Shown: piece after piece, positions 9,383-12,763 of the stretch
Layout: the number at the start of each line of letters is the position of its first letter
How positions within the stretch are numbered: position 1 is the first letter of the stretch
Source of the DNA: a bacterium
GTDB lineage: Bacteria > Patescibacteriota > Minisyncoccia > Phycocordibacterales > PALSA-1337
Direction of reading: 5' to 3'
Length of the DNA stretch: 34,777 nucleotides
NCBI GenBank assembly: GCA_021782175.1
Contig: JAJXVL010000003.1
Location: 1 to 34,777, forward strand
Position numbers and translations under genes: made by a program
The notes under the pieces: model-generated
What the model was told of the DNA's origin: nothing
The model's input: the letters and a program-made list of their open reading frames with translations, nothing else
The model's database searches: none

Positions 9383-10606
9383 ATGAAAGACCCTCAAATC
9401 AAAAAGCTTATAGTCACTGAGAAGAAACGCCAAAAGAGCGTGGTCAATCTGATCGCTTCAGAGAACTACGTCTCGGCCGATGTCCTAGAAGCTCTCGGTT
9501 CGGAATTGACGAACAAATATGCCGAAGGTTACCCGGGGCGACGCTACTATGGTGGCAATTTGATCACCGACAAGATCGAGCGGTTGTGTGTCGAGCGAGC
9601 CCTGAAACTTTTCAAGTTGGGCGCCTCGGAATGGCATGTCAATGTCCAGCCACTCTCCGGTTCGCCGGCCAATCTGGCTGTCTATACCGCACTGGTACCT
9701 TTGGGTGGCAAGATTATGGGCATGTCGCTTGATCATGGCGGTCATCTCACTCATGGTCACAAAGTATCTATGACGGGTAAGTCCTGGATCCAAATACCGT
9801 ACGGTATCGATCCGATCACGGAGACGCTCAACTATGATCAGCTCTTGGAACAGGCTATCGAGGCCAAGCCGCAAATCATCGTGGCGGGCTATACGGCTTA
9901 TCCGCGCATAATCGATTGGGCCAAATTGCGGAATATCGCTGATGCCTCCGGAGCTTTACTCATGGTCGATATGTCTCATATTGCCGGTCTGGTAGCTGGT
10001 GGTGTCTATCCGCCACCTTTCTCATATGCTGATATTGTGACCACGACGACACACAAAACCTTGCGCGGGCCACGCTCGGCCATGATCTTCGTGCGCAAGG
10101 ATGATCGCGAACTAGACAAGAAGATAGACAAAGCGGTTTTTCCTGGTTTGCAGGGTGGTCCGCACTTGAACCAGATTGCTGCTGTGGCGGTGGCTCTGCG
10201 CGAAGCCGATACGCCGGCTTTCCGACGCTACGCTCATCAAGTTCTCAAGAATGCTCAAGTACTCGCAGGTGAACTCAAACAGCGTGGTTGGCGGCTGATC
10301 TCAGGTGGCACTGATTCGCACTTGATCCTCGTTGATACCTGGATGGCCAATGTCATCAATGAAAAAGGCGCTGGCGGCGTACCTGGCAGTTTGGCCAGTG
10401 AAGTATTGGAGAAAGAAGGCATCATCGTCAACAAAAACGCTATTCCTTTTGATAGTCGGCCGCCGGCCGATCCCTCCGGTATCCGGTTGGGCACAGCCGC
10501 CGAGACTACGCGTGGCCGCAAGGAAGCTGATTTTCACAAGATTGCCGTGCGCATTGATGAGCTCTTGAAGAAACAGACCGCCAAGAAAAGCAGCTCGAAA
10601 AAATAG
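9383..10606 (+). CDS. glyA: Serine hydroxymethyltransferase
   Basis: LIASENY, NKYAEGYPGRRYYGG, GGHLTHG, TTTHKTLRGPR (PLP Lys), VFPGLQGGP, SGIRLGT. Confidence 0.98.
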   Translation: MKDPQIKKLIVTEKKRQKSVVNLIASENYVSADVLEALGSELTNKYAEGYPGRRYYGGNLITDKIERLCVERALKLFKLGASEWHVNVQPLSGSPANLAVYTALVPLGGKIMGMSLDHGGHLTHGHKVSMTGKSWIQIPYGIDPITETLNYDQLLEQAIEAKPQIIVAGYTAYPRIIDWAKLRNIADASGALLMVDMSHIAGLVAGGVYPPPFSYADIVTTTTHKTLRGPRSAMIFVRKDDRELDKKIDKAVFPGLQGGPHLNQIAAVAVALREADTPAFRRYAHQVLKNAQVLAGELKQRGWRLISGGTDSHLILVDTWMANVINEKGAGGVPGSLASEVLEKEGIIVNKNAIPFDSRPPADPSGIRLGTAAETTRGRKEADFHKIAVRIDELLKKQTAKKSSSKK

Positions 10607-10627
10607 GCAACGAAAATAGGCAAAAAG

Positions 10628-10910
10628 ATAAAAAGAATAGCGCGGTCGCTTCTTATCGAAAATTCGATGAAGCAAACCGCGCTGCGACCCCTCACTCGTG
10701 TGTGTCCCCAAAGGACGATCGGACACCACACGAGGAGGGGAGGAGGTACTTGGAATGTTGTCCTGCGGCCCCAGCCAGGACCTAGGGAAGCATCGGAGAC
10801 GCGATACTGGGCGAACAAGTCAGGACAATTTGTCCGTCCCAGTATCAGCCACCAGCTAGCCTTGCGACTCCGCTTCGTTGCCCCGACTTGCGTCGGCAAC
10901 ACCCCGTTCC
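10628..10910 (-). ncRNA. Candidate structured non-coding RNA (~280 nt), class not recognised
   Basis: Has its own promoter (10917-10945), dense nested helices including a GCAA-capped hairpin, and a 3' hairpin plus U-tract. No credible sense ORF. Confidence 0.65.
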
Positions 10911-10916
10911 TTTATA

Positions 10917-10945
10917 ATAATAGCTCATATGTCAGAAAAAGTCAA
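10917..10945 (-). promoter_or_regulatory. Sigma70-type promoter driving the candidate ncRNA
   Basis: Minus strand TTGACT (10945-10940), 17 nt, TATTAT (10922-10917); predicted start near 10910. Confidence 0.7.
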
Positions 10946-10993
10946 TAATAATATTTATCGCCAGTGCCGAGTGGCTCTGTTACAATGGCATTC

Positions 10994-12763
10994 ATGCAAA
11001 TGAAAGAAGTTTTGATACAGAGGTTGTCTGCTCTAGCCGAGGAGGCCGGTTTGGCTGCCGATCTGGTCACGGTTGGTTATCCGGAAGATGCCACCAACGG
11101 TGATTTCACCACCAATCTGGCTCTGGTAGGAGCCAAATCACTCAAACTCTCCCCCAGAGCTTTGGCGGACAAGCTCATAGCCGCCGCCACGGGGAAGTGG
11201 CCTGATTTCGTTGCTGAAGTTTCGGTCGCCGGGCCAGGCTTCATCAACTTCAAGATCAAGCCCGATTCTCTGACCAAACAAATCATCATGATGGCTTCGC
11301 ACATCAAGTCTGGTGCCAAGTCGGGTGATTGGTTGAAATCCAATTTGGCGGAAATGCGCGCCGGGGAGGCTGGTGCCATCACGGCTCCGGTGATGATCGA
11401 GTATACTGATCCAAATATTTTCAAAGTTTTTCATATCGGCCATTTGATGTCGAATACGATCGGCGAATCCATATCGCGCTTGATCGAAGCAAGCGGCACG
11501 CCAGTCATCCGTTTGTGTTACCCGGCTGACATTGGTCTCCATGTGGCCAAGGCTGTCTGGGCCGTCCAGAAAAATCTATCTGAAATGCCAGCTGATCAGG
11601 CACCCATTGCTCTGCGTACCGCCTTCTTGGGACGAATGTATGTTCTCGGCACCCAGACTTATGATGCCGATCCGGTCGCCAAGGCCGAGATCGATGAATT
11701 GAACAAGAAGTTGTATGAGGGTACGGACCCGGCGGTTCAGAAGATCTATCATCGAGGCCGCACCTGGAGTCTAGATCATTTCGAGGAGCTCTACCGGATT
11801 CTGGGTACCAAGTTCGATACTTATTTCTATGAGAGCAACATGGCCCCGATCGGTCTCTCGGTGGTCCGCCAAAATCTCGGCAAAGTTTTTGTCGAGAGTG
11901 ATGGAGCTATCGTTTTCCACGGGGAAGAACACGGTCTGCACACACGTGTCTTCGTGAATTCGCACGGTCTGCCGACTTATGAGGCCAAGGACTTGGGCTT
12001 GAATATCACCAAATTCGAGCACTATCCAGAAGCGGCCCAGTCCATCATCGTGACGGCCAGCGAACAGAACGAGTATTTCAAAGTAATGCTCAAAGTTTTG
12101 AGTCTGGTGGATGAGCGTGATGGGTCCAAGACCAAACATATCGGTCACGGTATGATGCGTTTCGCCTCCGGCAAGATGTCCTCGCGCACTGGCAATGTCA
12201 TCACCGCGGAAAGTTTGCTCTCTGATATGCGCGAATTGGTGCGAGCCAAGATGGCTGAGCGGGCCGAGACTCTGGATCCCGGCGAAGCTGATAAGATTGC
12301 TACCCAGGTAGCCATTGCCGCTATCAAATACACTATCCTGCGCCAGACTGTCGGCAGTGATATCGTTTTTGATTCGGCCAAGTCGATTTCTTTCGAGGGC
12401 GATTCTGGCCCATACCTGCAATACGCGGCGGTGCGTGCGGCGGCCGTCCTGGCCAAGGCAAACGCCGCGGGCATCAAGCCGGCCGAGAAAATTCCTGCCA
12501 GCATGGTGCCGGGCCAACTGGAGCGGCTCCTGGGGCGGTTCGCGGATGTTATGGCTCGGGCCGGCCTCGAGCAGGCGCCGCAATTAGTGGCTACTTATCT
12601 CATTGAGCTCGCTGCGGCCTTCAATAGTTTCTATAGTGATCATACGATCGCCGATCCGGCTGAGCCGCAGGCCCCGTATCGCGTGGCTCTGGTCCAAACT
12701 TTCCTCGCGGCCATGACTGACGGTTTGTGGCTCTTGGGTATCACGGTTCCGCGGTTGATGTGA
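10994..12763 (+). CDS. argS: Arginine--tRNA ligase
   Basis: GDFTTN, AGPGFINF, EYTDPN..FHIGHL, KMSSRTG, FEGDSGPYLQYA, LLGITVPRLM. Start set at 10994 after TG-T-TACAAT. Confidence 0.96.
   Translation: MQMKEVLIQRLSALAEEAGLAADLVTVGYPEDATNGDFTTNLALVGAKSLKLSPRALADKLIAAATGKWPDFVAEVSVAGPGFINFKIKPDSLTKQIIMMASHIKSGAKSGDWLKSNLAEMRAGEAGAITAPVMIEYTDPNIFKVFHIGHLMSNTIGESISRLIEASGTPVIRLCYPADIGLHVAKAVWAVQKNLSEMPADQAPIALRTAFLGRMYVLGTQTYDADPVAKAEIDELNKKLYEGTDPAVQKIYHRGRTWSLDHFEELYRILGTKFDTYFYESNMAPIGLSVVRQNLGKVFVESDGAIVFHGEEHGLHTRVFVNSHGLPTYEAKDLGLNITKFEHYPEAAQSIIVTASEQNEYFKVMLKVLSLVDERDGSKTKHIGHGMMRFASGKMSSRTGNVITAESLLSDMRELVRAKMAERAETLDPGEADKIATQVAIAAIKYTILRQTVGSDIVFDSAKSISFEGDSGPYLQYAAVRAAAVLAKANAAGIKPAEKIPASMVPGQLERLLGRFADVMARAGLEQAPQLVATYLIELAAAFNSFYSDHTIADPAEPQAPYRVALVQTFLAAMTDGLWLLGITVPRLM

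Follow-up and report, generated by a model that had tools for sequence, protein, structure and literature searches.

A lineage-specific structured RNA gene between glyA and argS in a Parcubacteria-type family, as shown in silico

For the 34,777-nucleotide stretch of bacterial DNA analysed here, hereafter the window (positions 1 to 34,777 of contig JAJXVL010000003.1, assembly GCA_021782175.1), the in silico evidence shows that the minus strand between glyA and argS carries the gene for a stand-alone, highly structured non-coding RNA (ncRNA) of about 285 nt. The element is, in this genome, the orthologue of an RNA that is specific to a lineage and retained between these two genes by a family of Parcubacteria-type bacteria with small genomes, labelled Taylorbacteria. 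A first-pass annotation of the window had suggested a stand-alone structured RNA at this site, and the suggestion is strengthened by a unit that is conserved in place and strand in relatives and by compensatory changes and purifying selection in its orthologues. Transcription of the RNA would start at a dedicated promoter of the sigma-70 type, run against the direction of glyA and argS, and stop at a hairpin resembling an intrinsic terminator. The best explanation of its role, offered tentatively, is that of a folded particle working in trans, most likely together with a protein. Its helices, comprising a closing helix, GNRA-capped hairpins and multi-branch loops, would form a scaffold that evolves fast and presents a few conserved pyrimidine-rich CCUC elements as the recognition surface. 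These elements would be, for most relatives, a hairpin with GGUUCCUC; for the subgroup of the window, an A-rich linker with ACCUCC; and, ahead of the terminator, a hairpin with a pyrimidine-rich and a purine-rich strand. Other housekeeping and regulatory ribonucleoproteins (RNPs), in which the RNA keeps its shape and short motifs and not its sequence, would work by the same logic.

A transcription unit conserved in place and strand

Read on the minus strand, positions 10622 to 10945 begin with a promoter, behind which some 285 nt of self-complementary, GC-rich sequence close with a hairpin and its U-rich tail. The -35 hexamer TTGACT (10945-10940), read from the sequence and scored in a promoter scan, is followed after a 17-nt spacer by the -10 hexamer TATTAT (10922-10917), which places the probable transcription start near 10910. 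Precisely this promoter and start had been put forward in the first-pass annotation, and the hexamers stand where it placed them; an independent scan gives the site 10 of 12 matches, the best among 4 promoter-like sites in 10300-11200, where shuffled sequences give 0.8 sites. The terminator that had been claimed for the RNA is likewise supported by a compound terminator-like hairpin at 10683-10639, to which a purpose-written script assigns -29.5 kcal/mol, and by the T-rich stretch behind it that would form the U-rich tail (10638-10622). A simple terminator scan does not list this final hairpin because its loop exceeds 8 nt and the T-run begins 4 nt past the stem.

The conservation of the unit was followed in 80 species-representative loci with 69-84% identical serine hydroxymethyltransferase (SHMT, the glyA product), from genomes labelled Candidatus Taylorbacteria, Parcubacteria, Paceibacterota or Patescibacteria. 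The argS gene lies within 1.2 kb in 60 of the 80, and 46 of these 60 have a spacer of at least 140 nt. A strict promoter, TTGAC(A/T/C)-N16-18-T(A/T)NNNT, at the argS end and on the strand opposite to the genes, is present in 31 of the 46 spacers as against 1 of 46 in the mirror-image control, and the glyA end has a stable hairpin followed by a T-run in 32 of 46 (control, 19 of 46). A relaxed promoter and a terminator occur together in 26 of 46 spacers, compared with 2 of 46 in the control. The criterion for an independent small RNA (sRNA) transcription unit, an own promoter and an intrinsic terminator on one strand and kept in relatives, thus describes what is found here in silico. SHMT is encoded upstream of argS in 39 of 40 further loci of the genus, and the sister genus of the same family also has the RNA (2 of 2 genomes); no such RNA was found at the glyA-argS position in three other families of the order.

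A curated set of 31 of these RNAs, 144-363 nt long, was assembled with ends picked by hand from script output, the automatic terminator finders being noisy, and loci L148, L149 and L151 were dropped for unclear ends. Each of the 31 folds better than its own shuffles (30 per RNA; z from -2.3 to -8.1), and in 22 of them the z of the sense strand is more negative than that of the antisense strand. No open reading frame (ORF) is kept across the spacers, and a small protein was rejected as the product; the cross-species ORF matches that appear are confined to near relatives or come from an inserted gene of about 170 aa in two long spacers.

Some glyA-argS spacers of relatives are much longer, as noted for L253, L263 and L227 (709-861 nt) and for L036 and L137; extra sequence with more hairpins lies past the terminator of the RNA. 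Two loci have a conserved ORF on the strand of the RNA, with 154 aa aligned at 56% identity.

Predicted fold, shared motifs and selection

The minus-strand RNA of the window has a minimum free energy (MFE) of -139.4 kcal/mol (z -7.59), a value that none of 200 dinucleotide shuffles equals, and the plus strand folds less well (-123.8 kcal/mol, z -6.33). The MFE and centroid folds agree on a 5' domain at 10752-10910, which is closed by a long-range helix, GGGGUGUUG with CAACAUUCC (10905-10897 and 10760-10752), and contains a CCGAC-GCAA-GUCGG tetraloop hairpin (10896-10883), a long nested arm (10876-10787) and a third hairpin at about 10786-10761. Behind it come the linker AAGUACCUCCU (10741-10751), with its CCUCC-type element, and a long hairpin (10688-10740) whose 5' strand is pyrimidine-rich (CCCCUCCUCGUGUG...) and whose 3' strand is purine-rich (...CACACGAGUGAGGGG). 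The closing helix, the GCAA hairpin, the nested arm, the long hairpin and the final hairpin, all drawn in the first-pass annotation from the letters, are present in the MFE fold. The hairpin that it gave as GUCCUG/CAGGAC also forms there, in a different register that the fold draws as GGUCCU/GGGGCC. The segment GUUGCC (10900-10895) is complementary to GGCAAC (10882-10877), the latter unpaired in the best fold; a pairing of the two could extend the GCAA hairpin in competition with the 5' strand of the closing helix and so give an alternative conformation.

Between species the sequence is almost wholly replaced, while the promoter and the GC-rich terminator recur, and in most curated orthologues a hairpin of species-specific sequence stands just before the terminator. 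When the listing is read by eye, about two thirds of the curated RNAs have in this hairpin a 5' strand rich in pyrimidines (for example CUCCCUC, CCCCUC or CUCUCUC) opposite a 3' strand rich in purines. The most enriched 4-mer of the set is CCTC, with 74 occurrences against 41.5 expected and presence in 30 of the 31 RNAs; TCCTC is counted 34 times where 12.4 are expected, and the 46 spacers, read on the RNA strand, contain 93 CCTC and 57 GAGG. A longer motif, GGUUCCUC, was found in 22 spacers out of 72, for the most part as (A/U)UCGGUUCCUC; three other spacers have a variant that differs by one base. The motif lies in a small hairpin within a multi-branch region closed by a helix. The window belongs to a subgroup (WIN, L012, L019, L024, L132, L140, L159 and L165) with a TTGACTTTT-type promoter and shorter RNAs that are devoid of GGUUCCUC. 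Its members share a layout in which a 5' domain closed by a helix is followed by an A-rich linker with ACCUC(C) at its end, a long hairpin and the terminator, and the nearest relatives L019, L140, L159 and L165 have A-rich AAACCUC(C)-type linkers ahead of the same hairpin. Across 301 genomes of the order, TCGGTTCCTC is about as frequent as the control, and all of the 30 sampled sites fall inside open frames of at least 120 aa.

Selection on structure is best seen in the orthologues L252, L239 and L236, for which RNAalifold gives a structure of 80 pairs with 96% of the cells of the alignment paired. Of these pairs, 14 are compensatory, both sides having changed, as compared with 4.7 +/- 1.7 in 500 shuffles, none of which reaches 14, and with 0-2 when the partners are slid by 1-3 columns. 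The compensatory pairs are spread over the 5'/3' closing helix, a 5' arm, the hairpin of the conserved motif with its enclosing helix, and the terminator. In a second group, made up of 4 sequences, 5 of 27 pairs are compensatory. In the closest pair the RNA is 90.7% identical, compared with 84% for glyA overall and 61% at its third codon positions. Homologues had been expected to conserve the pairing and not an ORF, and this is borne out by the compensatory changes in the orthologues and by the want of a conserved frame. The covariation that had been anticipated among homologues from the Candidate Phyla Radiation is present in these two small orthologue groups and fails to extend to the 5' domain of the window.

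Sequence-based searches find little of the window RNA elsewhere. BLAST of the RNA against 60 relatives returns only matches of 35 and 24 nt in the terminator and tail. A covariance model built from the 5' domain alone (R1) finds 0 of 92 genomes of the genus and 0 of 100 argS loci, and with filters off on the 12 nearest loci nothing exceeds 9.4 bits (E 1). The corresponding model of the 3' module (R2) was set aside, since of its 9 matches over 85 sources two fell on the locus from which it was built. MAFFT, which is blind to structure, sets the hairpins of the 3' module out of register, and RNAalifold then retains only 4 pairs. The closest arginyl-tRNA synthetases in relatives and in a metagenome scan are only about 59-60% identical, and four DNA runs of one study carry an identical stretch with 0 differences over the RNA and therefore offer no variation to use. 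No RNA run is listed as carrying the stretch, which counts neither for nor against transcription. The helices of the 5' domain of the window, lacking an alignable homologue, are without covariation support and stand as thermodynamic predictions.

The region is also single-copy in the host genome (an assembly of 545,689 bases in 63 contigs, 83.9% complete), where BLAST-short (word lengths 7-9) and nhmmer (E<=10) return the element itself and chance 16-21-mers. This bears on the possibility that there is no RNA gene here and that the locus is a mosaic of palindromic DNA repeats of the REP/BIME kind, or structure without a function. Like such repeats, the element is intergenic and hairpin-rich, with stems that in the window are in several cases long and perfect. 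REP/BIME-like repeats would need dispersed copies or shared modules, and the genome has no second copy and no shared module; unlike them, the element keeps one syntenic position with a strand-specific promoter and a terminator, and its orthologues show compensatory changes and purifying selection, so that we regard this explanation as highly improbable.

Several observations weigh against reading the element as a conserved trans-acting particle and have to be set beside the evidence above. In 12 of 60 species the glyA-argS spacer is shorter than 60 nt and leaves no room for the RNA at this place, so that it may be dispensable, and conserved order is the only link seen between the RNA and any gene. 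The enrichment of CCUC is modest, at about 2.4 words per RNA. The GGUUCCUC motif is missing from the window RNA, and no relative can be aligned with its 5' domain; the case for homology with the RNAs of other spacers is accordingly made by place and strand, by the type of promoter, by the CCUC linker and by the hairpins at the 3' end. The alignments that show covariation contain no more than 3 and 4 sequences, and two of the three in the first are 88% identical; for this reason the covariation and identity figures, as far as these sequences go, show constraint in the family and not support for individual helices of the window. We nevertheless prefer a folded particle with a specific partner to an sRNA that merely carries a seed, since selection over the whole length, a branched fold with GNRA loops and conservation of shape and short motifs in place of sequence are better explained by the former.

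Known RNA classes and the flanking genes

Membership of a known family was judged with the 4227 models of Rfam 15, a score at or above the gathering threshold of the family being taken as a match. No family reaches this threshold in the window, and a search of 10500-11050 (551 nt) at E<=10 returns only 3 chance-level matches of 10-17 bits. There are no matches at the gathering threshold in the loci of 20 relatives, and at E<=5 the loci of 20 further relatives give only 2 sub-threshold matches, one of them to ctRNA_pGA1 at the terminator end of one orthologue (25.9 bits, 45 being needed). The Rfam search that the first-pass annotation had named as a check of novelty is thus negative in the window and in the loci of 40 relatives, and its statement that the RNA has no hallmark of tmRNA, RNase P RNA, signal recognition particle (SRP) RNA or 6S RNA agrees with the Rfam and ARAGORN results.

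Each of these classes was rejected on its own evidence. ARAGORN finds 0 tmRNA genes in the window, and the tmRNA of the genome lies on another contig (C20:10294-10660, 104.9 bits). RF00010, the model of RNase P RNA, has no match in the region; this RNA was found in 38 of 40 relatives of the genus, on other contigs or at places unrelated to argS. In the host genome no RNase P RNA was detected in the present 84%-complete assembly, a gap that is best put down to incompleteness because 38 of 40 relatives carry one. Many of the RNase P RNAs of relatives score under the Rfam gathering cut-off, 10 of 41 lying above it.

The SRP RNA models RF00169 and RF01854, which describe the helix 8 motif, are unmatched in the region and in the host genome, where the Ffh partner is also absent. 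The small and large models each find 0 of 41 genomes of the genus, as against 12 of 14 and 9 of 14 controls. On the protein side, searches detect the M domain of Ffh (PF02978) in none of 6 genomes and the SRP54-type GTPase domain of Ffh and FtsY (PF00448) in none of 5, two of which are rated 100% complete, with 14 of 14 well-known genomes positive for each; the RNA is therefore not an SRP RNA. By both RNA and protein searches the SRP pathway seems to be wholly missing from the genus, and our literature searches found no paper on SRP loss in this group.

A very divergent member of a known housekeeping class, with 6S RNA the likeliest, is a reading that we hold to be very improbable. 6S RNAs conserve shape rather than sequence, and the present RNA resembles them in this respect, in being presumably abundant, given its strong, near-consensus promoter, and in the closing helix that pairs the 5' and 3' ends in some orthologues; no 6S RNA is detected in the host genome. 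Unlike 6S RNA, these RNAs have multi-branched folds and not a rod with a central bubble. RF00013 is unmatched in the region and in the genome, this and all other families scoring below about 17 bits on the region, SRP RNA is excluded in a genus without SRP proteins, and tmRNA and RNase P RNA lie elsewhere.

The flanking genes limit what the RNA could do in cis. On the plus strand, glyA (9383-10606; Pfam SHMT, E 5.9e-155) is convergent with the RNA and argS (about 10994-12763; Pfam tRNA-synt_1d, DALR_1 and Arg_tRNA_synt_N) is divergent from it. The only neighbour that minus-strand transcription would reach is the convergent glyA, and the earlier statement that no gene follows on the same strand, and that the RNA is hence not a leader, is correct; a riboswitch, a T-box or another leader was rejected on this ground, which applies likewise in relatives, and on the absence of an Rfam match. 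The remaining version of a cis-acting function is a riboswitch-controlled antisense RNA, which would either terminate or read through into glyA, or else a terminator or insulator between glyA and argS. It is favoured by the invariably convergent orientation of the RNA and glyA, by the end of the U-rich tail lying 16 nt from the glyA stop codon, and by the finding that glyA has no terminator-like site of its own on the plus strand in a simple scan. An aptamer for a ligand should vary far less than this RNA, whose conserved core amounts to about 10 nt and is missing in the window, and no riboswitch family matches; a simple terminator could do without a strong promoter of its own and without 200 more bases of structure, and 12 of 60 species manage without the spacer. 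A cis-acting function is accordingly quite unlikely in our estimate.

Recognition elements, possible partners and significance

The sequence CCUCC is the core of the anti-Shine-Dalgarno (anti-SD) element, and the first-pass annotation had raised the possibility that an exposed CCUCCU in the linker pairs with mRNAs bearing a Shine-Dalgarno (SD) sequence. The exposure is supported, the CCUC and CUCC words of the linker having mean unpaired probabilities of 0.46-0.64, and the host targets are not. In a survey of 335 ORFs of at least 200 aa, with the first ATG taken as the start by a rough rule, SD-like 4-mers between -18 and -4 are not enriched upstream of starts (24 of 335, as against 31 of 335 in a control interval). 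The pattern TANNNT ending 4-12 nt ahead of the ATG occurs in 131 of the same ORFs compared with 56 in the control, an excess which suggests that many host mRNAs are leaderless. The argS gene itself is probably leaderless, to judge from a TG-TACAAT promoter-like site (10958-10986, plus strand; promoter scan) whose -10 element TACAAT ends 7 nt ahead of the ATG at 10994.

A base-pairing riboregulator or decoy is nonetheless a reading to be reckoned with, albeit one that we consider unlikely; as the genes of the bacterium itself lack SDs, it would have to act on a small number of purine-rich sites or on foreign mRNAs with an SD, of phage or host-cell origin. The enriched CCUC words, which lie partly in loops and linkers, the CCUCC within the window linker ACCUCCU, and the own promoter and terminator, as in trans-acting sRNAs, are all in keeping with such a role. 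The potential partners are scarce, in that besides the missing SD enrichment the genome has only 629 copies of GGAGG, both strands counted. In five genomes, GAGGAACCGA, the exact complement of the conserved 10-mer, is found only at the RNA gene and at chance-level sites, and a wobble-tolerant pattern in the tmRNA, RNase P and 16S loci gives 7 matches against about 6 expected. In the own genome no extended complement of the linker stands beside a start codon, one 10-mer excepted. An elaborate fold of 250-300 nt, selected along its whole length, also exceeds what a carrier of a seed requires. Together, a host without SD enrichment and a 10-mer complement confined to the RNA gene and chance sites argue for a partner other than a plain SD, and the trans-acting folded particle, with a protein as its likeliest partner, is the reading that we tentatively retain.

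Complements of the window linker occur in the own genome at 10 places and are 10-13 nt long, two of them being the opposite strand of the RNA itself. A 13-nt complement, TTCCAAGUACCUC, lies at G000:C29 near 3524 on the minus strand, about 0.3 such matches being expected by chance. The gene that seems to start there is on the opposite strand and carries the letters of the RNA itself, so its mRNA is not complementary to the RNA.

Among known systems, the RNA is filed as a new family within the orphan structured bacterial ncRNAs, a group found by comparative genomics to which raiA, OLE and the ROOL/GOLLD-type RNAs belong. It resembles these in its stand-alone gene, its multi-branched fold with GNRA loops, its compensatory changes and its narrow phylogenetic range, and differs from them in having no match in Rfam 15, in sharing only short CCUC-type motifs across the family, and in its fixed glyA-argS position. 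Literature searches found no description of such an RNA, although an entry in a candidate list within a supplement could have escaped them. To our knowledge, almost nothing is known of the ncRNAs of the Candidate Phyla Radiation.

The sRNAs of Firmicutes with C-rich regions offer a second comparison. RoxS/RsaE and FsrA have pyrimidine-rich elements, exposed in loops or linkers, for pairing with G-rich, SD-like sequences (PMC8216469). The present RNA is similar in its own promoter and intrinsic terminator and in exposed C/U-rich elements that could pair with an SD-like sequence, given the enrichment of CCTC and TCCTC and the partly unpaired linker. It differs in being 2-3 times longer and far more structured, in matching none of those families, in having CCUC/UCCUC motifs and not C-runs, and in the failure to find SD-bearing host targets.

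An RNA of 150-360 nt with a strong promoter, kept at one locus across a family with genomes of 0.5-1 Mb, is costly for reduced genomes, and its maintenance under purifying, structure-preserving selection suggests that it is important. It offers experimenters a concrete target in a group without genetics, and an RNA-database family built on it would improve the annotation of these genomes. The CCUC elements are puzzling in a host with no sign of SD usage, many probably leaderless genes and no SRP pathway. A more speculative proposal, to which we attach very little weight, starts from a lineage whose own genes seem to be translated without SD pairing and from a relative whose 16S model end lacks the usual CCUCC: here an abundant folded RNA displaying CCUCC-type elements could serve as a dedicated trap for SD-bearing foreign mRNAs, from phage or the host cell. 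Alternatively, it could be the RNA component of a novel RNP that has taken over from a universal machine lost in this clade without SRP. If the former were true, it would amount to an RNA-only system of translational defence or interference in episymbionts that live on a host cell.

Two 16S genes of relatives were also seen to be unusual. In relative G030 (L293:3380-3450), the match to the Rfam model ends in a tail without CCUCC, and a CUCCUCC stands about 25-30 nt past the end of the model, beside a small hairpin; this 16S end may represent an insertion or an unusual mature end. In relative G017, the 16S match is split into two overlapping pieces.

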